Shown here piece by piece: positions 1-15,415 of a stretch of DNA of 17,506 nt. The position numbers were made by a program, and so were the translations under genes. The first letter of the stretch is position 1, and the number at the start of each line of letters is the position of its first letter. The stretch lies in IMG/VR virus record IMGVR_UViG_3300029873_000373. The stretch is one strand, 5' to 3'. Source of the DNA: a virus. Lineage: Duplodnaviria > Heunggongvirae > Uroviricota > Caudoviricetes. The notes beneath the pieces were generated by a model. The model was not told the DNA's origin, made no database searches, and was given only the letters and a program-made list of their open reading frames with translations.

Positions 1-1083
1 ATGAAAAAATTAACAGTGGCAATTTCTGCTGTAGCTGCATCAGTACTGATGGCGATGTCTGCTCAGGCAGCTGAAATTTATAATAAAGACAGTAACAAGC
101 TGGATCTGTACGGGAAAGTTAATGCTAAGCACTATTTCTCCTCTAATGATGCAGATGATGGTGATACTACTTATGCCCGTCTTGGCTTCAAAGGTGAAAC
201 CCAAATCAACGATCAACTGACTGGTTTCGGTCAGTGGGAATATGAATTCAAAGGCAACCGCGCTGAATCTCAAGGTTCCTCCAAAGATAAAACCCGTCTT
301 GCCTTCGCTGGCCTGAAATTCGGTGACTACGGCTCAATCGATTACGGCCGTAACTACGGTGTAGCATACGACATCGGTGCGTGGACTGACGTTCTGCCAG
401 AATTCGGTGGCGATACCTGGACCCAAACAGATGTGTTCATGACTGGTCGCACCACTGGTGTTGCAACTTATCGTAACAACGACTTCTTTGGTCTGGTTGA
501 TGGTCTGAACTTTGCTGCTCAGTATCAGGGTAAAAATGACCGCACTGACGTAACTGAAGCTAATGGTGATGGTTTCGGTTTCTCCACTACTTATGAGTAT
601 GAAGGATTCGGTGTAGGTGCAACCTATGCTAAATCTGACCGCACTAATAATCAGGTTATCTACGGTAACAACAGCCTGAATGCATCTGGTCAAAATGCTG
701 AAGTATGGGCAGCTGGTCTGAAATATGATGCGAACAACATCTATCTGGCTACCACCTATTCTGAAACCCAGAACATGACTGTTTTTGGTAATAACCATAT
801 TGCCAACAAAGCACAAAACTTCGAAGTAGTTGCACAATATCAGTTCGACTTCGGTCTGCGTCCGTCCGTTGCTTACCTGCAATCTAAAGGAAAAGACTTG
901 GGTGCGTGGGGTGATCAGGACCTGGTTGAATATATTGATGTAGGTGCAACCTATTACTTCAACAAAAATATGTCCACTTTTGTTGATTACAAAATCAACC
1001 TGATTGATAAGAGCGATTTCACGAAAGCATCTGGCGTTGCTACCGATGATATCGTTGCTGTAGGTATGGTTTACCAGTTCTAA
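1..1083 (+). CDS. nmpC: Outer-membrane general porin (NmpC/Lc/OmpD-like), phage-encoded moron
   Basis: 360-aa ORF; N-terminal signal peptide ending AQA-AEIY; typical 16-strand porin features ([14 protein letters not shown], C-terminal ...VGMVYQF ending in Phe); sits next to Q as in DLP12. Symbol is from recollection of the NmpC sequence, not a search. Confidence 0.88.
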
Positions 1084-1271: not shown

Positions 1272-1655
1272 TTAATTAGAGTTATTAACAACGATATCCA
1301 TCTCTAACCGGATATCTAATGCCATTAACATCCCTTCAATTATGCCCTCAGCCTTCTGTAACCTTTTCCCGATATAACCATCAGAGCAGCAATGCTTACC
1401 TGCCAGTGACATGAATGTCATACCGACTACATAATAATCTACTAATAAATCGTGCAAATCGCTGTTGTTCTTTTTCAGACGGGCCATGCACCCGCAAATA
1501 ATCATCGCGTCATCGTCACAACATTGCGGGCGAGATTTTACTTTTGAAGTAATTAATCCCTTAAAACCGGCGGCAATGGACGACCAGGTCACATCTTCAT
1601 GATTATTAGCCGCCCACGCTCCCCAGCGTTCGAGAACCATCTGAATATCACGCAT
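1272..1655 (-). CDS. Q: Late-gene antitermination protein Q (phage 21 / DLP12 QuuD-like)
   Basis: 127 aa from ATG at 1655 (SD GGAG 7 nt upstream); the track ORF begins at TTG 1670. Cys-rich zinc-binding region ([19 protein letters not shown]); sequence recalled as QuuD-like; position immediately upstream of the porin/late region. Confidence 0.85.
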
Positions 1656-1672
1656 CAACTTTCTCCACAAAA

Positions 1673-2714: not shown

Positions 2715-2972
2715 TCACGCAGTAAACTCCTTCACCAGCGTTTCAAACTGGCTTACCTGTCCTTCCAGTTCCGCCACGCAATCCACCAGCTCATCCACCG
2801 CCTTTTGTGTGCGGTGTTTTGCCTGCAGCAGATCACGAAGCGCCGGAGTAAGCTGCTTGCGGAGCGTATCTTTTTTCACGCTCGTTTTTTCCATCTGTTC
2901 AGCACAACGAAGCATCTCCTGCGCCTGCCGACGAAGTTGTTCCGGTGAAACAGTGATTGTTCTGTTGTTCAA
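2715..2972 (-). CDS. Hypothetical small phage protein (85 aa)
   Basis: ORF with TTG start overlapping the helicase stop (TTGA); GGAG 8-9 nt upstream; helical-looking sequence; function unknown. Confidence 0.45.
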   Translation of the reverse strand: MNNRTITVSPEQLRRQAQEMLRCAEQMEKTSVKKDTLRKQLTPALRDLLQAKHRTQKAVDELVDCVAELEGQVSQFETLVKEFTA

Positions 2973-4369
2973 AATAAACGCTCCGTTTTACTGCCCGACA
3001 TGCGGTTATTGCTGTATCTGCGCGGATTGCCCGGCGTCATGGGTGTGGAAAGAACCCGGGCACTCTCCTGGTCCACAGGCAGAAAATGTCCGTTATGAAA
3101 ACGCCGGTAAATGGTCCCGAGTGTGCCATTACGCTGTTTCGTGATGTTGATTTCTGCTATGCCTCTGGCCTGTGTATCCGGGTTATACACCTCATCCCTG
3201 TAAAGCATCAGAATGATGTCGGCATCAGCCTCTATTTCCCCGGAGTTTTTCAGGTCTGAGTTCATGGGACGTTTATTGGGTCTGGATTCCACGCCTCGGG
3301 AGAGCTGGCTCAGAGCAATCAGCGGGAAACCGCCGGATTTTGCCAGGCTTTTAAGTCCCTTTGAGATTTCCCCCACAGCAAGGTCGTGACGCCCCGTGCT
3401 GCGGGTTTTAATCAGACCGAGGTAATCGACCACCACCAGCGCCGTTTCCGGGTGTTTCATCCGGTGGTGCTTCGTGGTTGCACATATCTCATCAATGGTC
3501 AGGTTTGCCTGATCCACCATCCAGATATTACGCCCCGTCATTCGTCCCACGCCCTGCGAGAAACGCGCCCAGTCTTCATCTTCAAAACGGGCAACAGACT
3601 TAAGACGGGATACCGGCATTCCACCGGCAGCAGACACCATACGTTCACCAATCTGGATGTTCGCCATCTCCATGGTGAACAGAAGCACGCCATGCCCCTG
3701 CTCAGTCACCTTGTCGATGATGTCCAGCGCAAGTTCGGTTTTCCCCATCGAAGGACGGGCGGCAATGAATACCAGGTCACCGGGCTCCATACCGCCCGTT
3801 TTTGCGTCCAGTTCATCAATACCGGTCATCAGCGCCCTGGATTTCTCCAGTCCCTGATTGCGGCATTCAACACGGTCGACCACTTCCGGAAGGACATCAT
3901 CAATGTGAACCGGCTGAATGACGCCCTTTCCGGTCGACAGTGAGGCCATCATGTTCTGCACATCCTTCAGGGCATCCTCGGCTGCTTCACAGGTATACGC
4001 ATCACGTAAATTCTGTAATGCTTCAGTCAGTGTTTTTTCTGCATCGCGCAGTGCGGCATTGCGCCGCAACGCTGCGACATAGTGCTCCAGTGAAGACTTC
4101 ACCCAGGTTTTGCGTCCGGTGTCGGTAATCACCGGGGCAAGTTCCGGCATCTCATTGCACAGCAGTACGGGGTCAATGACGCCGGATATGCGAGCCTGTC
4201 TGCAAATCCCCGCGTAAATATCCCGGTACTGACGCACAAAAAATACATCCGCCGGAAGTGTGGCCAGAATATCCATCACTTCCGGATCGGCCCCACGCAG
4301 AAAAAACGCACCGATGACAGCGCCTTCCAGGTCATCGTTACGCCATGCCGGGGTGTTCTGGCTGGTCAT
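2969..4369 (-). CDS. Replicative DNA helicase, DnaB family (phage-encoded)
   Basis: 466 aa; Walker A in DnaB context (FIAARPSMGKTELALD); N-terminal DnaB-like helical domain; start ATGA-overlaps the stop of the upstream loader gene. Confidence 0.9.
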   Translation of the reverse strand: MTSQNTPAWRNDDLEGAVIGAFFLRGADPEVMDILATLPADVFFVRQYRDIYAGICRQARISGVIDPVLLCNEMPELAPVITDTGRKTWVKSSLEHYVAALRRNAALRDAEKTLTEALQNLRDAYTCEAAEDALKDVQNMMASLSTGKGVIQPVHIDDVLPEVVDRVECRNQGLEKSRALMTGIDELDAKTGGMEPGDLVFIAARPSMGKTELALDIIDKVTEQGHGVLLFTMEMANIQIGERMVSAAGGMPVSRLKSVARFEDEDWARFSQGVGRMTGRNIWMVDQANLTIDEICATTKHHRMKHPETALVVVDYLGLIKTRSTGRHDLAVGEISKGLKSLAKSGGFPLIALSQLSRGVESRPNKRPMNSDLKNSGEIEADADIILMLYRDEVYNPDTQARGIAEINITKQRNGTLGTIYRRFHNGHFLPVDQESARVLSTPMTPGNPRRYSNNRMSGSKTERLF

Positions 4370-5265
4370 GCGGCAACACCTCCGATACGAGAACGGTAGC
4401 TGGGCCAGTTAAACGACAACCAGTTGCGCCCGCCATCGGTGATCCTGTCGGCAATCCGGGGACTGATGAACGCCCACAATTCTTCCGGTGAAAGGTTGCT
4501 GATCAGGATAGTTGGCAAAATACCCTCATACCGGGCATTGATAATTTCCTGCAAAATGGCCATTTCAGCCGCACTGCCAAACTGAACGCCGACTTCGTCG
4601 ACAATCAGCAAATCCAGTGACGCATAATGCTCAATGACGTCATCCGCTGTTTTTTCACTGTCATTCCGCCAGCAGTTTTTCACAGCCCGGGTAAGGCGCA
4701 TCACGTCGGTGATCTCCACACTGGCCAGATAGTTACGGATGATGTGTTTTGCCATTGATACCGCCAGATGATTTTTCCCGGTACCGCAACTGCCGGTCAT
4801 AACAAGACTGGTACCGTTCTCCAGCATATCTGGCCAGTTCTCCGCATAGCGGCGACAGGCCGCAAGATTTCTGGCTGCGTCAGGATTAACCTCCAGATAA
4901 TTATCAAACTCGCAGTCCCGAAAACGCAGAGCAATTCCGGCGTTATCAGTCAGTTCTTCCGCCTTGAGGGACGACAGTTCCATGGTCAAATCACTGGCCT
5001 CAGCGATCAAGCAGTCAGGGCAGCATGAAATTTTTTCTCTGTCCTCGCCATTACGATCGATCCACACCAGTATATGCGTACGATATTTACCGTGTTTTTC
5101 GCAATATCCGCGACCTTCACGCATCAGGCAGGAACGATAAGGCCATGGCTTTTCGCCCTTCTGAGCAAATGCAATCTCTGCCCGTAACTCATCCATTTCT
5201 GCCCGTAACTCATCCATTCGCGCCTGTAGTCTTGTTTGTTTCTCACGTTGGTCAATCGTCATCAT
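4366..5265 (-). CDS. DnaC-like helicase loader / IstB-type AAA+ ATPase
   Basis: Walker A (TGSCGTGKNHLAVS) and Walker B (LLIVDEVG). The track starts at GTG 5274, but ATG 5265 has better SD spacing (GAGGTG-N6-ATG). Contains a 21-bp perfect tandem duplication (MDELRAE x2). Confidence 0.85.
   Translation of the reverse strand: MMTIDQREKQTRLQARMDELRAEMDELRAEIAFAQKGEKPWPYRSCLMREGRGYCEKHGKYRTHILVWIDRNGEDREKISCCPDCLIAEASDLTMELSSLKAEELTDNAGIALRFRDCEFDNYLEVNPDAARNLAACRRYAENWPDMLENGTSLVMTGSCGTGKNHLAVSMAKHIIRNYLASVEITDVMRLTRAVKNCWRNDSEKTADDVIEHYASLDLLIVDEVGVQFGSAAEMAILQEIINARYEGILPTILISNLSPEELWAFISPRIADRITDGGRNWLSFNWPSYRSRIGGVAA
5177..5218. repeat. Perfect 21-bp tandem duplication (TCTGCCCGTAACTCATCCATT x2) inside the DnaC-like gene
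   Basis: Two identical adjacent 21-mers at 5177-5197 and 5198-5218; in frame (7-aa repeat MDELRAE). Confidence 0.9.
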
Positions 5266-5275
5266 CGCTGTCACC

Positions 5276-6268
5276 TCAGAATGTCAATTTGTTACTGGAT
5301 TTACCGAATTTGTCAGACATGGCTCCCAGGCCAGCCAGGACATCGACCTGTCGCTGTCGCCCACCTCCGTGAGCGGCTGGCTGTTGCCAGTAATCTTCGA
5401 AGTGACGATCGGGTCCAAAGAACGTCGCAGCCTGCTTCACGAACTGTGTGCCGGTATTTCCTGTAGCACGTACCCAGGCGGCATACCGCTTCACGCCATC
5501 AAGCATGGTCTCCGGTTTTATTCCCTCCCTGATACGGGCTTTCCAGGCTTTGAAGGCTGCTGACTTGGAATTGCCACCAGCACGTTTGGGATATTCCTGC
5601 CAGGCCTGTTCAAATTCCGGTGAATATTCCTGTCGGGCAGAACGCGCTGGCGCAGACGCGTCAGCGGATGCATCAATAGTGTTTTTAGTCTCCGTTGTAA
5701 TCTCTGTAGTAATCTCTGTATTTGTATCAACATTCGGCGTATCCCCTGTTCCGTTATGACGTCGGGGGGTGTTCCGTTTTAACGTAATAGCTGTATCGCT
5801 GATTGCATTATTGCTGTTACTTTCTGGCGAAACAGAAGAAGGTGTGGTGATGGCCGCAATTGCCTGTGGGTTGATCCCGACAAACAAAATATTGCTGCAT
5901 TTCACCCCATCGAGCATTTCCACCGTGCGTAAATCCAGAGTAATAAACCCTGCATCGCGCAGACGCTTCAGCGCATCTGCGGTTTCCCTTTTCCCGAAAC
6001 CAAACTGCTCAGCAAACGCCTGGTAGCTTCTTTGCAGTTTGTCGCCCTGAAAACGCTTGCGATATCCCAGCAACGCTCCGGTGTGCTCATCCCTGACCTC
6101 TGTCGGGCGGTACCAGTAAACGATCTCTGAAAGCAGAGCGATAGCCGTCGCATCCGGACGCCCACTGGGTAGTCGAATATATTTCCACCAGTTCGCAGGT
6201 GTAACATTGCCGGAAATATTAATTTGACCAATAGCCATAACTTCCGGTGTGGGGGCGTAACGGCTCAT
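5276..6268 (-). CDS. Phage replication initiator (lambda O-like replisome organiser)
   Basis: 330 aa; strong SD AAGGAGGT before ATG 6268; N-terminal winged-helix-like domain; central low-complexity linker (TEITTEITTE) encoded by iteron-like DNA repeats; immediately upstream of the DnaC-like and DnaB-like genes. Confidence 0.65.
   Translation of the reverse strand: MSRYAPTPEVMAIGQINISGNVTPANWWKYIRLPSGRPDATAIALLSEIVYWYRPTEVRDEHTGALLGYRKRFQGDKLQRSYQAFAEQFGFGKRETADALKRLRDAGFITLDLRTVEMLDGVKCSNILFVGINPQAIAAITTPSSVSPESNSNNAISDTAITLKRNTPRRHNGTGDTPNVDTNTEITTEITTETKNTIDASADASAPARSARQEYSPEFEQAWQEYPKRAGGNSKSAAFKAWKARIREGIKPETMLDGVKRYAAWVRATGNTGTQFVKQAATFFGPDRHFEDYWQQPAAHGGGRQRQVDVLAGLGAMSDKFGKSSNKLTF
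5697..5720. repeat. Iteron-like 12-bp tandem direct repeat (GTAATCTCTGTA x2) inside the initiator gene; candidate origin element
   Basis: Two perfect 12-mers at 5697-5708 and 5709-5720 with related flanking partial copies; located in the inter-domain linker of the O-like gene, as lambda ori is in O. Confidence 0.45.
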
Positions 6269-6564
6269 ACAACCTCCTTCCGCGGCATGAGAATTGTGTA
6301 GCCACGCGCAGGTTGTAGTCTGGCTTTTGCATCAATAGTAAGCGTTGCAATTTTTCGGATATGAAGATAACCAGCTCTTTCCAGTGCCAGGGTTTCCCTG
6401 AATATCGCTTGCTTAGAACAACAGCAGAAATCAGCAAGCACCTGATGATCAATAACTCTCTCGCCTTCACCGTCTGAAGAACCCGACATCAAAACACGCA
6501 ACATAATCAGGCGCTGAATCGGGTTATCGAAAGCACATCCGCACACAAACTGAAAACAGTTCAC
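6265..6564 (-). CDS. Hypothetical early protein (99 aa), possible winged-helix DNA-binding
   Basis: GTG start with SD GGGAGGTG; GTGA overlap with the upstream gene and ATGA overlap with the initiator gene. Confidence 0.5.
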   Translation of the reverse strand: MNCFQFVCGCAFDNPIQRLIMLRVLMSGSSDGEGERVIDHQVLADFCCCSKQAIFRETLALERAGYLHIRKIATLTIDAKARLQPARGYTILMPRKEVV

Positions 6565-6785
6565 GCCACACCTCCCAGACGCTTAAACATTTTTCCAGAC
6601 AGAAATACCGCCAGAGGGTAACTGATGGTGTAGCTACGCCCCTGTAGTTCGCACACGACTTTCTGGCTTTCAGCGTTGACTAGGCAAACCCGCAGAACGT
6701 GACCGTTGCTGGTGGCGAACCACTGCCCCACACGGGGGCAACGGTTGTATCGGTGATACAGGGAATTAACGATGTGGCGGATCAT
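6561..6785 (-). CDS. Hypothetical small phage protein (74 aa)
   Basis: ATG 6785 preceded by GGCGGAGGTG; translationally coupled on both sides. Confidence 0.45.
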   Translation of the reverse strand: MIRHIVNSLYHRYNRCPRVGQWFATSNGHVLRVCLVNAESQKVVCELQGRSYTISYPLAVFLSGKMFKRLGGVA

Positions 6786-6976
6786 GGACGCACCTCCGCC
6801 GTAGTTACGTATTTAACCGGGCTACCTTTCATTGAGATGGTTTCACACATCTCTGCCGCTTTCAGTTCCGCTGTTTTTCTGGATTTATAGCGACGGTGCC
6901 AGACAGATACATCCGTGCGAACTGATACATCGTTTCTGTATTCCGTAGTGGAGATGATGATTTCGTAACTAATCAT
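6782..6976 (-). CDS. Hypothetical small phage protein (64 aa)
   Basis: ATG 6976 preceded by AAGGAGGT; ATGA overlap with the Rha-like gene stop. Confidence 0.45.
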   Translation of the reverse strand: MISYEIIISTTEYRNDVSVRTDVSVWHRRYKSRKTAELKAAEMCETISMKGSPVKYVTTAEVRP

Positions 6977-7833
6977 GGGCGAACCTCCTTGTCAGAACCA
7001 TTCAGCCTGGAATCAACAAGTGCAGCGCCAAAAACAGCATCACCAACACGGTCGTACAGTTTGCTAGCCAGCGGAGATTCAACGGCCTTAAGCATTGGAT
7101 AAAGCTGGCTTGTCCAGATTTGATGGATTTCACGCAAATGCAGGTATACGCCTCTGGCGTTTCGTGCGACAGCTGACATATCAGACGCATCGGCACCTGA
7201 TAAACTCTTCTCCATCAGGTTAAAGGCGTTGATGTATGCCTCTTTGAACCGGGCAGCACGTTTACCAGTGAAGCCCATGGCAAGAAACGCAAAACCGTCG
7301 CGGGTGATTTGGTAACAAGGGAGCTTGCGTGTACCACCGTTCGGTTGATTTACCGAAATCGATGTCTCCGCAAAATTGCGGGCACAAAACTCAGGGGAAC
7401 AATCCAGAGTGCGGATCTTTTTCAGCACATCGTCATGACGCTTGGAGAAGAAGTTGGCAACAGCCAAAGAAGTGGTAACGGCCTGGCCGTTGTCAATGGT
7501 GATTTCAGGTTGAGTGAGGGCTGGGATCGTAGCCATGATGGCAGCCTCCGTTGACAGTGAAAAACTTCCACCACCGGAAACGCCAATTTCACTGGTGGTG
7601 AACTGGACGGGGTTGGCGTAACCGGCGTCAACGGAGACCGGCGCACCTTTCGGTGCCCCCGCCCAGCCCACCATAATCTGGATGTGAGCAAATGCGGACG
7701 ATAAAAAAGACGCTGGCGCGTCATACATCGCCGTTGACAATTTCAGGACGCCAATCCCGGCACCCGCTTTATAAGGTGCGGAGACAGTGTAACGTCCCGG
7801 AATTGCAGAATCAATATGCTGGTGGCGGATCAT
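6973..7833 (-). CDS. Rha-family phage regulatory protein with a ~99-aa N-terminal module of unknown function
   Basis: Rha-like core ITIDNGQAVTTSLAVANFFSKRHDDVLKKI ... TRDGFAFLAMGFTGKRAARFKEAYINAFN; ATG 7833 has SD GGGAGGTG. An in-frame internal ATG at 7536 with SD GGAGG lies exactly at the module/Rha junction. Confidence 0.7.
   Translation of the reverse strand: MIRHQHIDSAIPGRYTVSAPYKAGAGIGVLKLSTAMYDAPASFLSSAFAHIQIMVGWAGAPKGAPVSVDAGYANPVQFTTSEIGVSGGGSFSLSTEAAIMATIPALTQPEITIDNGQAVTTSLAVANFFSKRHDDVLKKIRTLDCSPEFCARNFAETSISVNQPNGGTRKLPCYQITRDGFAFLAMGFTGKRAARFKEAYINAFNLMEKSLSGADASDMSAVARNARGVYLHLREIHQIWTSQLYPMLKAVESPLASKLYDRVGDAVFGAALVDSRLNGSDKEVRP
7537..7833. repeat. Copy 1 of a ~300-bp duplicated coding module (N-terminal domain of the first Rha paralog)
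   Basis: Near-identical DNA to 8193-8492, e.g. shared CCCGCTTTATAAGGTGCGGAGACAGTGTAACGTCCCG and GACGATAAAAAAGACGCTGGCGCGTCATA. Confidence 0.85.
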
Positions 7834-8492
7834 AGGTGCACCTCCCGTTGATTACGACGGAACGCGGAGTGACCCTGGACGGTTTCAGCCTCATGGAATG
7901 CTTCAATACAGCTCTCGTAGTACCGCATTGTGCGCAGACTTAACCCAAGCTGAAGCATCATCAGACCATCAAGGGTGATGTAATAACCACGCAGGGAGTC
8001 ACCGTAGATGTGATAAGTACCCGGTATGAAATTGCGGGTAAAAAACCCGCGTGAGCAGTTCAGATACTCGATTTTGTCAACGATGTTCTGGTGCATGCGC
8101 TTGAAATGGCAGGCAACATGCAGGGAGAAAATAACGGCCTTGCCGTTGACGACTTCGATTTTTAGGAATGGGGAAGTTAGGACAGTAGCCATGATGGCAG
8201 CCTCCGTATGCAATGGATAACTTCCACCACCGGAGCTGCGAAACTCATGGGTGGTGAACTGAACAGGGTTCGCAGTACCGGCGCATACGGAAACCGGCGA
8301 GCCTTTCGGCTCCCCTGCCCAGCCCACCATAATTCTGGCGTGCGTGAGCGCGGACGATAAAAAAGACGCTGGCGCGTCATATATCGCCGTATGCAATTCC
8401 GGGCTGCGACCCCCGGCACCCGCTTTATAAGGTGCGGAGACAGTGTAACGTCCCGAAATTGCAGAATCAATATTTGGTCTTGAAATGATCAT
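7830..8492 (-). CDS. Rha-family regulatory protein paralog (divergent Rha domain) carrying the same N-terminal module
   Basis: N-terminal 100 aa about 75% identical to the adjacent gene; Rha-like IEVVNGKAVIFSLHVACHFKRMHQNIVDKI. ATG 8492 has no SD; internal ATG 8192 has GGAGG and may be the true start. Confidence 0.6.
   Translation of the reverse strand: MIISRPNIDSAISGRYTVSAPYKAGAGGRSPELHTAIYDAPASFLSSALTHARIMVGWAGEPKGSPVSVCAGTANPVQFTTHEFRSSGGGSYPLHTEAAIMATVLTSPFLKIEVVNGKAVIFSLHVACHFKRMHQNIVDKIEYLNCSRGFFTRNFIPGTYHIYGDSLRGYYITLDGLMMLQLGLSLRTMRYYESCIEAFHEAETVQGHSAFRRNQREVHL
8193..8492. repeat. Copy 2 of the ~300-bp duplicated coding module
   Basis: Same as above; differences are substitutions only, many at third codon positions of the minus-strand frame. 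Confidence 0.85.
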
Positions 8493-8601: not shown

Positions 8602-9308
8602 CACCGCTGCCAACCAATAACCTGAAATAACCCCATTTTCGGGTGATACCAGCGAGTCCCTCGCGGTTCTGCTTCCTCCATAATCCGATAAAAAGCAGCC
8701 ATAAACGGTTCCACAGCAACAATTGCGCGACGTGACAACAATCCGTCCGGCGTCATGAACTCATGGGTGTCTGTAGGAATCTGATAGGCGTTCACCAGAT
8801 TGCGGCATTTATCATCTGACAAACCGGTTTTTGCTTTCAGTTGGCGATATCCGGCATAGCCCTCACGAATAGTGCCCTTTTTAATTTGCTCGACTGTTTC
8901 AGCAACGTGGCTGACTTTTTCTTCCACCTGAGTGATCCGTTTCTGTTGGCGAACGGCTTCAAGAGCCATCGCGGCAACCATTTCGATTTCGCTCATTGGC
9001 TTACGGATCTGTTCTTCCAGTTCGCGCCAGCGATCTACCAGGCGAGCTGTGAATTCAGGACAGAGCTGTGCGACGACAATGATGCTGTCGCGCTTACCTC
9101 GTTCACCTTCGAATACATACGCGCTAGAAAATCGGCGAGGCCCAAGTGATTGTTTATTCTCAATTTCCACAGTCTGTGGAAATTGGATGATTCCCTTTTT
9201 AGCCAGTGTTTCAATAGTTCTCTTAACACTATCTGGTCGGCTTCCCACCAGCTCTGCGATCTCAACGCTGGTCATGGATGCTTTGCCGTTAAAAATTGCG
9301 GTGTTCAT
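8601..9308 (-). CDS. Rha-family phage regulatory protein (antirepressor-like)
   Basis: 235 aa; N-terminal MTSVEIAELVGSRPDSVKRTIETLAKKGII fits the Rha-domain pattern; coiled-coil-like middle; SD AGGAGA before ATG 9308. Confidence 0.7.
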   Translation of the reverse strand: MNTAIFNGKASMTSVEIAELVGSRPDSVKRTIETLAKKGIIQFPQTVEIENKQSLGPRRFSSAYVFEGERGKRDSIIVVAQLCPEFTARLVDRWRELEEQIRKPMSEIEMVAAMALEAVRQQKRITQVEEKVSHVAETVEQIKKGTIREGYAGYRQLKAKTGLSDDKCRNLVNAYQIPTDTHEFMTPDGLLSRRAIVAVEPFMAAFYRIMEEAEPRGTRWYHPKMGLFQVIGWQR

Positions 9309-9532
9309 TGTTGGTCTCCTGTGGGCTTGTCATCTTCTGTATTCGCTAGACTTGGGTGTGTATATGGAATGCTCGGATCCAGATGACAAAGAATGGCAAC
9401 ATCCTCCGGAACACCTCGCGTTTTCCACTTTCCAACACCTTGACTGCCACGAGGCCTTCCTTTCTTTGGGAACCTGCGACCAATAGCGGCATTGGTTTTA
9501 AATTGAATTTTTAATATTTCATAAAGGGTCAT
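9305..9532 (-). CDS. Candidate first ORF of the early-right operon (75 aa, basic, no recognisable HTH)
   Basis: ATG 9532 lies about 30 nt downstream of the predicted PR start; ATGA overlap with the Rha gene; weak SD; low-complexity basic sequence, so it may be non-coding leader. Confidence 0.3.
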   Translation of the reverse strand: MTLYEILKIQFKTNAAIGRRFPKKGRPRGSQGVGKWKTRGVPEDVAILCHLDPSIPYTHPSLANTEDDKPTGDQQ

Positions 9533-9549: not shown

Positions 9550-9622
9550 GATACTTTGTTATCCAACGATGTTAACCATAGGAACCCAAAGTATCAAGAA
9601 ATTCTGTTACTTTAGTATCAAC
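9550..9622. promoter_or_regulatory. Rightward-operator/promoter-like region (divergent PR/PRM analogue) with repeated operator motif
   Basis: Motif CAAAGTATCAA at 9587-9597, TTTAGTATCAAC at 9611-9622 and inverted GATACTTTG at 9550-9558. Candidate minus-strand promoter: -35 TTGATA (rc of 9592-9597), 17-bp spacer, -10 TAACAT (rc of 9569-9574). Confidence 0.5.
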
Positions 9623-9643
9623 AGCCATGAGAGGAGAAGAAAA

Positions 9644-10300
9644 ATGAAGTCTTTAGGTGAACGTCTCATCAACGCACGGCAAAAAGCTGGGTTAACACAA
9701 GATGCGTTGGCTAAAAAAGCTGGGGTCACCAGAGTTGCAATAAGTAAAGCCGAGCAAGGCCTTACAAAAAGTTTCAACGGTGACACCCTTTTTAAAGTTG
9801 CAGCTGCACTGCGGTGTTCACCGCAGTGGCTTCAGAACGGAGATGAAAAAGATAAGCATTGGGAAAATAATGTTAAGAGCTGCCCACAGAGAGACACAGC
9901 ACACTCTTACCCTGTAATTAACTGGGTTCAGGCAGGATTATTCGCAACTTCTGGTGATGACTACAACATGTATGATCAGGATAATTGGAGGCATTCTGTA
10001 AAATACGCTGGTGAGAGGGGGTTCTGGCTGGAAGTGCACGGAGACTCAATGACTTCGCCCGTAGGAATAACATTTCCTGAAGGAATGTCGATCCTTGTCA
10101 ACCCAGATAAAGAAGTTTTTTCAGGGTGTTACGTCATCGCCAGAAAAAAATCCACCAATGAAGCAACATTCAAAAAATATATTTCTGACATGGGAAAGGC
10201 GTTTCTAAAGCCCCTTAATCCACAATATCCAATCATAGAAATGGACAATGATTGCGAAATAGTAGGTGTTGTGGTTGATGCCAGATGGGATATTTTCTGA
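9644..10300 (+). CDS. cI: CI-like prophage repressor (XRE-family HTH plus LexA/S24 peptidase-like C-terminal domain)
   Basis: 218 aa; SD GAGGAGAAG before ATG 9644; HTH LINARQKAGLTQDALAKKAGVTRVAISKAEQG; S24 catalytic context GDSM ... ATFKKY; divergent from the early-right operon. Confidence 0.9.
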   Translation: MKSLGERLINARQKAGLTQDALAKKAGVTRVAISKAEQGLTKSFNGDTLFKVAAALRCSPQWLQNGDEKDKHWENNVKSCPQRDTAHSYPVINWVQAGLFATSGDDYNMYDQDNWRHSVKYAGERGFWLEVHGDSMTSPVGITFPEGMSILVNPDKEVFSGCYVIARKKSTNEATFKKYISDMGKAFLKPLNPQYPIIEMDNDCEIVGVVVDARWDIF

Positions 10301-14660: not shown

Positions 14661-15415
14661 TCACTATTACCAAAGGGCGACTGCTGACAATCAAGCAGTG
14701 GCGCGAAACATACGGACCGGGTAGCAACGTTGTACTGCCAGCAGAAGAAGCGGAAGAACTGGCACGAATTGCACTGATATCGCTGGAAGCAGAGCCGGTG
14801 GCAAAGATTATAGCTCATTACCCATTAGGAGTTGACGTAGGCAAACAAAAGTTCGTGCAGGCCATTGGAGAGCTTCCTGACTTTGGCGGATATCTATTTG
14901 CCGCCCCGCCAGCGCCGGTAGTGCCGGAAGAAGCAACTCCGGAAAACGTAGAAATGCTCTCTGGCTATGTTTCCACGTACAAATTAACCGATAGCGAGCG
15001 CGATATTGCTGCCGAAATATGGAACGCCTGCCGCACCGCCATGCTTCAGTCCGGAAACTTTCGGGAAAGCAAGAATTCGTCAACCAATAATTTTCGGGAA
15101 ATCCCGGAAGCGTCAACCAGCTCTCCGGTAACTCCGGCTCTTCTGCCTGGTGGTTTCACCATTGAGGAGGCGAAGGAATTACATGAAGACCTGGTACGCA
15201 GCCACATAAGCAAGGCCTTAAGTGGCGAAAAGATGAAAAAGAAAGATCGCGATGCTGATTTGCGCTGGATTCATGGCGTTATAGTTCAGGCAGCGTGGTT
15301 TGTAAAAGCATCACTGGAGCAGAATGCACTATCGGGCAACTCTCCGGTAACTCCGGATGGTTGGATAAGCTGTAGTGAGCGAATGCCGGACGACAGGCAG
15401 GAGGTGAATCAATGA
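14657..15415 (+). CDS. Prophage protein with DUF551-like C-terminal motif (252 aa) and internal repeats
   Basis: ATGA overlap upstream; C-terminal PDGWISCSERMPDD resembles the start of the DUF551 domain (recollection); 33-bp imperfect tandem repeat and 17-bp exact repeat inside the gene. Confidence 0.6.
   Translation: MITITKGRLLTIKQWRETYGPGSNVVLPAEEAEELARIALISLEAEPVAKIIAHYPLGVDVGKQKFVQAIGELPDFGGYLFAAPPAPVVPEEATPENVEMLSGYVSTYKLTDSERDIAAEIWNACRTAMLQSGNFRESKNSSTNNFREIPEASTSSPVTPALLPGGFTIEEAKELHEDLVRSHISKALSGEKMKKKDRDADLRWIHGVIVQAAWFVKASLEQNALSGNSPVTPDGWISCSERMPDDRQEVNQ

Follow-up and report, generated by a model that had tools for sequence, protein, structure and literature searches.

Results

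Genes at the border of the antirepressor and replication modules

We analysed a stretch of 17,506 nucleotides (nt; IMG/VR record IMGVR_UViG_3300029873_000373, Caudoviricetes; hereafter the window), which is an E. coli lambdoid prophage carrying the early-right operon on its minus strand, and focused on three small genes at positions 6265-6976 located between genes of the Rha antirepressor family and the gene of the replication initiator. Read along the minus strand, an open reading frame (ORF) of 286 amino acids (aa) with an Ash part, the Pfam Rha domain and isrK and C4-like RNAs inside it (6973..7833) is followed by genes for proteins of 64 aa (6782..6976; WP_000626792; phrog_7046, function unknown), 74 aa (6561..6785; WP_000618007; phrog_1153; N-terminal helix and small barrel) and 99 aa (6265..6564, GTG start; WP_000995578; phrog_4617 match) and by the replication initiator of 330 aa (5276..6268; phrog_270), in which the N-terminal domain is variable and the DnaD-like/"LvrA C-terminal" domain is conserved. 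The three small proteins are annotated as hypothetical by the Prokaryotic Genome Annotation Pipeline (PGAP), and their exact sequences are each present on at least 1000 contigs. Strains CE10, AR_0013 and others carry the stretch 6200-7050 with 100% identity, and it has matches in 408 of 5426 complete E. coli genomes, ST131 and Stx-phage relatives among them, with at least 80% coverage in 119 of the 408. Substitution patterns show all three ORFs to be conserved coding genes. The first-pass annotation, which had given the sizes of 64, 74 and 99 aa correctly, was right in treating them as genuine, tightly joined genes between the Rha genes and the initiator.

Six successive junctions share a Shine-Dalgarno and stop-start architecture

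Six successive minus-strand junctions (starts at 7833, 6976, 6785, 6564, 6268 and 4369) are built alike, with a GGAGGT, a spacer of 3-8 nt and an ATGA or GTGA in which the upstream stop and the downstream start share 4 nt. The first-pass annotation had described a cassette at the first four, all of which are found in the sequence with their 4-nt overlap; the pattern is longer than stated there and includes the junctions between the 99-aa gene and the initiator and between the DnaC-like and DnaB-like genes. The pattern GGAGGT-N3-8-RTGA occurs at 7 sites in the window compared to 0.28 expected from shuffles, with none of 200 shuffles reaching 7, and of the nine GGAGGT sites on the minus strand, six are positioned as Shine-Dalgarno (SD) sequences of successive genes.

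Three of the junctions, J1 between an upstream 220-aa ORF and the 286-aa ORF (7822..7845; GGAGGTGCACCTATGATCCGCCAC), J2 between Rha and the 64-aa gene (6965..6988; GGAGGTTCGCCCATGATTAGTTAC) and J3 between the 64-aa and 74-aa genes (6774..6797; GGAGGTGCGTCCATGATCCGCCAC), carry a near-identical joint of 17-24 nt, GGAGGTGCGYCCATGATYCGCC, encoding EVRP and the stop of one gene and MI(R/S) of the next. An independent repeat search retrieved the same three sites as a 24-nt family (6774-6797, 6965-6988, 7822-7845) with 75-88% identity, and the 17-mer cassette GGAGGTKCRYCCATGAT, allowing at most one mismatch, occurs in 3 copies in the window versus 0.01 expected. J1 and J3 additionally have ATGATCCGCCAC (MIRH) in common. 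J4 between the 74-aa and 99-aa genes (6561..6575; GGAGGTGTGGCGTGA) and J5 between the 99-aa gene and the initiator (6265..6277; GGAGGTTGTATGA) have nothing but the SD and the overlap in common with the other junctions and differ in the spacer; J6 joins the DnaC-like and DnaB-like genes (4366..4383; GGAGGTGTTGCCGCATGA). The 74-aa protein ends in a conserved Leu-Gly-Gly, whose codons provide the SD of J4 and serve whichever gene comes next. On the plus strand, a GGAGGT-N6-ATGA stop/start junction at 15400-15415 leads from an ORF ending at 15415 into the next gene, showing that this coupling style extends beyond the early-right operon.

Three features of ATGA-type translational coupling are present at the junctions, namely the stop/start overlap, an SD inside the upstream coding sequence and conservation of the overlap in diverged relatives. 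The ATGA overlap is kept in loci L137 and L138, in Enterobacter, Salmonella, Serratia and Pantoea and in a JGI contig with differing flanking sequence, and the overlap at J5 is likewise kept in the four genera and the JGI contig. The retention of the SD/ATGA architecture where the sequence differs implies selection for coupling or for gap-free translation. Neither promoters nor terminators were in excess within 6265-6976.

The cassette coincides with mosaic breakpoints

Besides its coupling-type architecture, the cassette coincides with breakpoints of mosaicism. The match to phage phiP27 spans exactly 6797..6561, from the SD of J3 to the stop of J4, the homology to phage PhiR49_2 stops at 6568 inside J4, and J1 corresponds to the L16/74 junction of phiP27 followed by the Ash ORF, which natively also begins with ATGATCCGC (locus L010). 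The 64-aa gene is an exact 191-nt indel between two cassette copies, and relatives run directly from Rha to the 74-aa gene. Scanning IMG/VR with the 17-mer we identified 161 sites in 120 loci, approximately 144 within this gene set and approximately 17 in unrelated genes; the cassette joins 10 of 12 combinations of donor (Rha, 64, Ash219) and acceptor (64, 74, Ash-Rha short, Ash-Rha long) units.

Mosaic boundaries in lambdoid genomes are described by the modular genome hypothesis and relaxed homologous recombination (PMC3945230; PMC9836094). The boundaries found here resemble them, as the homology blocks stop at gene borders and gain, loss and reordering affect whole genes. They differ from usual mosaic boundaries by a specific reiterated SD/stop-start sequence of 17-24 nt common to several unrelated genes, resulting in a short direct repeat visible at each breakpoint, yet shorter than the reported minimal pairing segment.

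The 99-aa protein is related to the DNA-binding domain of the initiators

The 99-aa protein matches phrog_4617 ("replication initiation protein"; E 2e-29) over profile positions 3-93 of 223 and shows 33% identity with residues 16-61 of the PhiR49_2 initiator. Comparing its family with the HTH_36 N-termini of the neighbouring initiators, hhalign returned a probability of 78% (E 1.9e-5). As judged from these comparisons, it is a stand-alone predicted winged-helix protein and a paralog of the N-terminal DNA-binding domain of the initiators. It aligns with the N-domain of lambdoid initiators (lambda O-like; HTH_36, phrog_4617, phrog_391) and its gene stands first in the replication module; in contrast to lambdoid initiators it is a separate polypeptide lacking the linker and the C-terminal domain. 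Of the two domains of a phage initiator it has only the N-terminal winged helix; the helicase(-loader)-recruiting C-terminal domain is absent, the protein ending at residue 99 and its homologs being 97-107 aa long, so it is not itself an initiator. Public records call it "transcriptional regulator".

Homologs of 97-107 aa are distributed over at least seven genera of enterobacteria, with a range that extends from E. coli to Serratia, Pantoea and Yersinia. Their alignment contains 20 invariant columns, including FCCCS(K/R)Q, and a near-invariant DGEGER; the synonymous sites are saturated (proportion of synonymous differences, pS, 0.67-0.93) compared to a proportion of nonsynonymous differences (pN) of 0.17-0.38. 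The Phe-Cys-Cys-Cys-Ser-(Lys/Arg)-Gln motif (residues 46-52; 6404-6424) is situated in the predicted turn/recognition helix and is invariant in 28 of 28 aligned homologs. Three consecutive conserved Cys residues are unusual in a helix-turn-helix (HTH) domain and might indicate metal or redox sensitivity. A tblastn search with the 99-aa protein against the INPHARED phages gave zero matches; at the DNA level, the 64- and 74-aa genes do occur in that collection.

The stop of the 99-aa gene overlaps the initiator start by 4 nt in all readable loci (87 of 89 loci, comprising Enterobacter, Salmonella, Serratia, Pantoea, Superficieibacter, the JGI contig and 76 of 78 classified IMG/VR loci). The initiators that follow have three unrelated N-domains and two C-domains, and phiP27 and PhiR49_2 encode the same initiators without a 99-aa gene. 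We rejected the possibility that the protein is an origin-specificity partner of the initiator, as its putative recognition helix stays invariant across initiators whose N-domains are of three unrelated types. Between cro and the initiator, prophages of Enterobacter, Salmonella and Superficieibacter have its homolog as the sole intact annotated gene, with a 42-aa DUF4222-like ORF (Salmonella) and a DUF4222 pseudogene (Superficieibacter) also lying in this interval; in the window it is set apart from cro by three Rha-family genes and is 3 kb away from cI. We conclude that the 99-aa protein is a conserved, stand-alone putative DNA-binding regulator whose gene opens the replication module.

Some E. 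coli loci (L014-L016, 2597-3467) contain Phage_CP76 (186-type CII) followed by a DUF4222 gene and no 99-aa gene. CP76 is in turn absent from loci that have the 99-aa gene, hinting, from few loci, at mutual exclusivity.

The 74-aa protein is a borderline DUF4222-like small barrel

The 74-aa gene evolves with a ratio of nonsynonymous to synonymous substitution rates (dN/dS) of 0.13-0.32, and its family is small, with 22 representatives in an exhaustive profile search; profile matches in immunoglobulin (Ig)/fibronectin type III (FN3)-repeat proteins of 1100-2300 aa were judged to reflect spurious beta-strand similarity. The AlphaFold2 model (predicted local distance difference test, pLDDT, 79) shows an N-terminal helix of approximately 15 residues followed by a five-strand small barrel of SH3/KOW-like type. 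Its best PDB match is the KOW domain of Spt5 (E 9e-3, template modelling (TM) score ~0.5), with SH3 and Tudor domains also retrieved, all non-significant. We set aside a KOW/NusG-like function, the likeness being that of a generic small barrel (E >= 9e-3, TM ~0.5).

The only consistent Pfam signal is DUF4222 (PF13973), with E 0.034 and 14.1 bits against a gathering cutoff of 27. Within the 74-aa family, 9 of 15 members match DUF4222 at E<=1 (best E 0.0033), and hhalign of the family against DUF4222 ORFs gave a probability of 59% and E 9e-5 over 42 columns. The UniRef name of the exact sequence is "DUF4222 domain-containing protein"; a jackhmmer search seeded with DUF4222 did not reach it. We therefore describe the 74-aa protein as a DUF4222-like small barrel, this assignment being borderline.

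The position of the 74-aa gene is invariably between Rha and the initiator (or the 99-aa gene), with 4-nt overlaps, including relatives of 50-60% identity. In Serratia and Pantoea a genuine DUF4222 gene directly precedes the 99-aa homolog. An unannotated DUF4222-like ORF of 42 aa is located directly upstream of the 99-aa homolog in Salmonella (L007, 4876-5004), and in the same place Superficieibacter (L140, 3830-4000) has a DUF4222 pseudogene interrupted by an in-frame stop, supporting that the order DUF4222, winged helix, initiator is wider than annotations indicate. The only characterised DUF4222 protein is RgdR from O-island 51 of enterohaemorrhagic E. coli (EHEC), a prophage regulator of the type III secretion system of the locus of enterocyte effacement (LEE) (PMC10877973). 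The 74-aa protein resembles DUF4222 proteins and RgdR in its small size (57-74 aa), its origin in the prophage early region, its beta-rich core and its slot just before the 99-aa gene, and differs by the additional N-terminal helix of approximately 15 residues and by scoring 14 bits versus the cutoff of 27.

The 64-aa protein is an accessory orphan

The 64-aa protein matches phrog_7046 (E 2.2e-48) and has homologs in 14 clusters from E. coli only; dN/dS compared to locus L014 is 0.24. The AlphaFold2 model (pLDDT 95) shows a strand-strand-helix-strand-strand topology for which a PDB fold search gave no match (best E 0.45), and within BFVD it matches uncharacterised viral proteins only. The 64-aa gene is an optional accessory gene and the sole remaining orphan of the three. 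The first-pass annotation had stated that the three small proteins match nothing recognisable, which stands for the 64-aa protein and no longer for the other two: the homology and structure searches it proposed revealed an initiator-type domain in the 99-aa protein and the borderline DUF4222 relation of the 74-aa protein.

For all three families, sequence-profile searches of the PDB gave nothing useful, NCBIfam contained no meaningful matches and PADLOC, whose library holds defence and not anti-defence proteins, returned no match at E<=0.1. The Phage_CII, C1, CP76 and YdaT families were not matched at E<=0.1 in either Pfam or NCBIfam.

The 7833 junction precedes an isrK/C4 RNA module

Within the 286-aa ORF, the Pfam Rha domain starts at residue 120 (E 3.9e-27), and the first ~100 codons coincide with isrK and C4 RNA genes. 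Rfam identified isrK at 7779..7703 and 8435..8359 (62.2 and 58.8 bits; gathering threshold 50), with an isrK terminator at 7722..7709, and C4 antisense RNA at 7678..7591 and 8334..8247 (81.4 and 83.3 bits; gathering threshold 45). These matches fall into the N-terminal Ash part of both the 286-aa ORF and the 220-aa ORF upstream ("Ash + weak Rha", 7830..8492, minus strand), which contains the first isrK/C4 module. A direct repeat of 294 nt with 82% identity (7524-7817 versus 8180-8473) reveals the isrK/C4 module to be tandemly doubled. A lenient Rfam search of 6100-7600 returned zero RNA families in the target region and specifically did not find isrJ.

Substitutions in the Ash region, compared between the copies and relatives, are distributed over the three codon positions as 23/16/23, 34/40/40 and 10/8/12, i.e. 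without third-position excess, and because of this evenness we consider the isrK/C4 region to evolve as RNA. The 7833 junction is thus a true cassette copy but probably not the start of a selected protein, the probable real start of Rha being the ATG at 7536 with an SD (GGAGG) at 7549. At 7534-7833 and 8190-8492 (minus strand), the N-terminal Phage_ASH domains that Pfam assigns to the 286-aa and 220-aa ORFs overlay isrK, C4 and the isrK terminator, with the Ash reading frame nonetheless open in 5 of 5 variants compared; what Pfam lists as the Ash family may for the most part be the translation of an RNA locus. Only one Rha gene is present in E. coli AF57 (L001, 3730-4578) and in phage PhiR49_2; its 5' end is like the first module of the window and its 3' end like the second, consistent with deletion or duplication via recombination between the RNA-gene repeats.

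With isrK and C4 upstream of Rha, the locus has the composition of an RNA-controlled antirepressor module of the P1 immI or Gifsy-1 isrK type. In the isrK operon of Gifsy-1, orf45 and anrP are connected by an AUGA overlap with experimentally shown coupling (Hershko-Shalev et al. 2016, PMC4825925); orf45 is conserved at the nucleotide and not at the amino-acid level, and in Shigella it is fused with anrP to 287 aa (PMC4825925). The window resembles this operon in the isrK RNA, the Rha/AnrP-type antirepressor and the AUGA stop/start overlap, and the fused 286-aa ORF matches the orf45-anrP fusion of some strains. In contrast to Gifsy-1, the ATGA chain runs four junctions further, through three extra small genes and into the initiator, a perfect SD is present at each junction and the isrK/C4 module occurs twice.

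Other genes of the operon and putative origin

The early-right operon begins with a cro-like gene (9532..9305, minus strand), followed on the same strand by a Roi/Rha-like gene (235 aa) and the two Ash ORFs described above; a LexA-like repressor is encoded divergently (9569..10300). The initiator is followed on the minus strand by DnaC-like, DnaB-like, 85-aa ORF, DUF968 and Q-like genes in that order. The 85-aa ORF (2715-2972, minus strand) matches only the C-terminal 83 of 204 positions of phrog_2565 (E 1e-30) and may be a truncated or split gene. Just past the Q-like antiterminator gene (1272-1670, minus strand) an OmpC/NmpC-like porin of 360 aa is encoded (1-1083, plus strand), a lysogenic-conversion arrangement also observed in relatives L010-L012 with Porin_1 next to antitermQ.

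Within the initiator gene (5700-5790, minus strand) we found two 16-nt repeats, ACGTYAWAACGGAACA on the coding strand, 23 nt apart and followed by an A/T-rich stretch with ACAGAGATTAC repeats in the linker-coding part. The arrangement is reminiscent of a lambda-type origin lying within the initiator gene; searching the window for extra copies of the putative origin iteron yielded just these two.

Discussion

We consider it probable that 6265-6976 represents the seam between the isrK/C4-Rha antirepressor module and the replication module of a widespread E. coli lambdoid prophage, formed by coupled small genes which are joined by the cassette. The seam holds three separate, selectable small genes. 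The last codons of each gene carry a consensus SD (GGAGGT) for the next gene, with the TGA overlapping the next ATG/GTG. According to this model, a ribosome finishing one gene, or a fresh one binding the exposed SD, would start the next gene, and the region from Rha to the initiator would be translated as one chain without an untranslated gap. The near-identical joint would be shared by descent, with Rha, Ash-Rha, 64-aa and 74-aa units inserted, deleted and permuted at it. The 99-aa protein would act as a sequence-specific DNA-binding regulator at or near the replication/immunity decision and the 74-aa protein as a small regulatory or adaptor protein. Regulatory-type functions are plausible for both proteins.

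Several observations weigh against parts of this model. No SD-sequestering structure was found at five junctions (z -0.4 to +0.8 versus shuffled sequence), and we rejected SD-sequestering hairpins as a basis of obligatory coupling with 0 of 5 junctions folding better than shuffled sequence; a strong SD with no masking structure makes independent initiation possible. The perfect identity between the cassette copies extends over just 6-12 nt, below the minimal efficient pairing segment of 23-27 bp reported for Red-beta (PMC3945230), and the cassette may thus mark surviving breakpoints instead of promoting them. The IMG/VR sites were found via the cassette itself, so the frequency of cassette-free joins is not readable from this tally. 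Finally, the DUF4222 link of the 74-aa protein falls short of the cutoff of Pfam, and the Pfam HTH matches of the 99-aa protein are sub-threshold. The cassette may promote the exchanges, selection of functional joints after rare microhomology events being an equally good reading.

For the 64- and 74-aa proteins, a function in host takeover or anti-defence, as morons riding on the expression of the antirepressor and not serving phage regulation, is doubtful but deserves to be taken seriously. Both genes are directly downstream of, and coupled to, Rha and hence under the isrK/C4 switch, Lar restriction-alleviation genes are present in the equivalent region of relatives, and the 64-aa gene is optional, restricted to E. 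coli and without homology to known regulators. For the 74-aa gene, however, the near-constant position of this gene or of DUF4222 before the 99-aa gene and the initiator across genera fits a core role better, and RgdR, the sole characterised DUF4222 protein, is a regulator (PMC10877973). The PADLOC search also returned no match, though its library holds defence and not anti-defence proteins.

In lambda and in CP-933P, the CII or Rac-type YdaT slot is defined by the gene order cro, regulator, initiator. The first-pass annotation had placed the small genes in this cII slot as possible lysogeny-establishment or host-interference factors, a placement that agrees with the 99-aa family in Enterobacter, Salmonella and Superficieibacter, where the order is cro, a ~100-aa HTH protein, initiator and helicase loader as in lambda, and disagrees with the window, where Rha-family genes intervene. 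That the 99-aa protein is a functional equivalent of lambda CII or of Rac/CP-933P YdaT appears rather unlikely to us. In its favour are the sole intact annotated gene between cro (of YdaS, P22_Cro or Cro type) and the initiator in the three genera, a size of ~100 aa with an HTH as in CII, the lack of the 99-aa gene in prophages with a 186-type CII (CP76; L014-L016) and a conserved putative recognition helix independent of the initiator type. The protein nevertheless has no similarity to the CII, C1, CP76 and YdaT families, its homology being to initiator DNA-binding domains; in the window its gene is 3 kb from cI behind the three Rha-family genes, several relatives lack both the 99-aa gene and CP76, and its stop overlaps the initiator start wherever readable.

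An efficient junction requires GGAGGT, ~6 nt and ATGA, and the likeness of the cassettes could be pure convergence on these elements without descent or a role in recombination. J4, J5, J6 and the plus-strand junction at 15400-15415, which have the SD and the overlap only and differ in their spacers, conform to this explanation, as do the distant relatives keeping ATGA in a different sequence, the ~17 IMG/VR matches in unrelated genes and the perfect identity of the copies below the minimal efficient pairing segment. Convergence accounts poorly for the spacer GCGYCC and the up to 12 nt past the ATG (ATGATCCGCCAC) that the copies also have in common, for the homology blocks and the 64-aa indel terminating exactly in the cassette and for one 17-mer linking the same four units in 10 of 12 combinations, and we regard it as unlikely. 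That the 99-aa gene is a functionless, decaying N-terminal remnant of a displaced initiator, as the match to only the first 93 of 223 phrog_4617 positions, the complete initiator directly following and the visible mosaicism of lambdoid initiator genes might suggest, is highly improbable and was rejected on conservation, given a length of 97-107 aa over seven or more genera with 20 invariant columns, saturated synonymous sites with a pN of merely 0.17-0.38, the exact protein on at least 1000 contigs and its pairing with three initiator types.

A more far-reaching version of the preferred model, in which Rha to initiator forms one translational unit gated by isrK/C4, the cassette serves as a plug-and-play linker and the 99-aa protein is a domesticated domain, is in our view quite a long shot as a whole. 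If it were true, blocking the translation of Rha would by polarity silence the three small genes and the replication genes, as in the control by the P4 CI RNA and P1 C4; the cassette would be a dedicated in-frame recombination linker allowing antirepressor and accessory genes to be swapped with the chain unbroken; and the 99-aa protein would be an origin-binding domain that has taken on a new role, in regulation or exclusion, dependent on the invariant Cys-Cys-Cys motif.

As a summary, the architecture is ordinary for lambdoid phages, coupled early-operon accessory genes and mosaic joints being of kinds already known, and current understanding is not overturned by any of these findings. The domesticated initiator domain with its invariant CCC, the orphan fold and the reiterated joint are modestly interesting details, and the domain-level identities would strip the hypothetical labels from three genes of a very common prophage. 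The cassette provides a countable case for distinguishing lambdoid mosaic joints arising from short conserved boundary sequences from selection after random joining. The 99-aa family cleanly illustrates how the DNA-binding domain of an initiator would persist as an independent, strongly conserved protein at the immunity/replication boundary, and it is a good candidate for the missing CII-like or replication-modulating regulator in prophages of the YdaS/Cro type.

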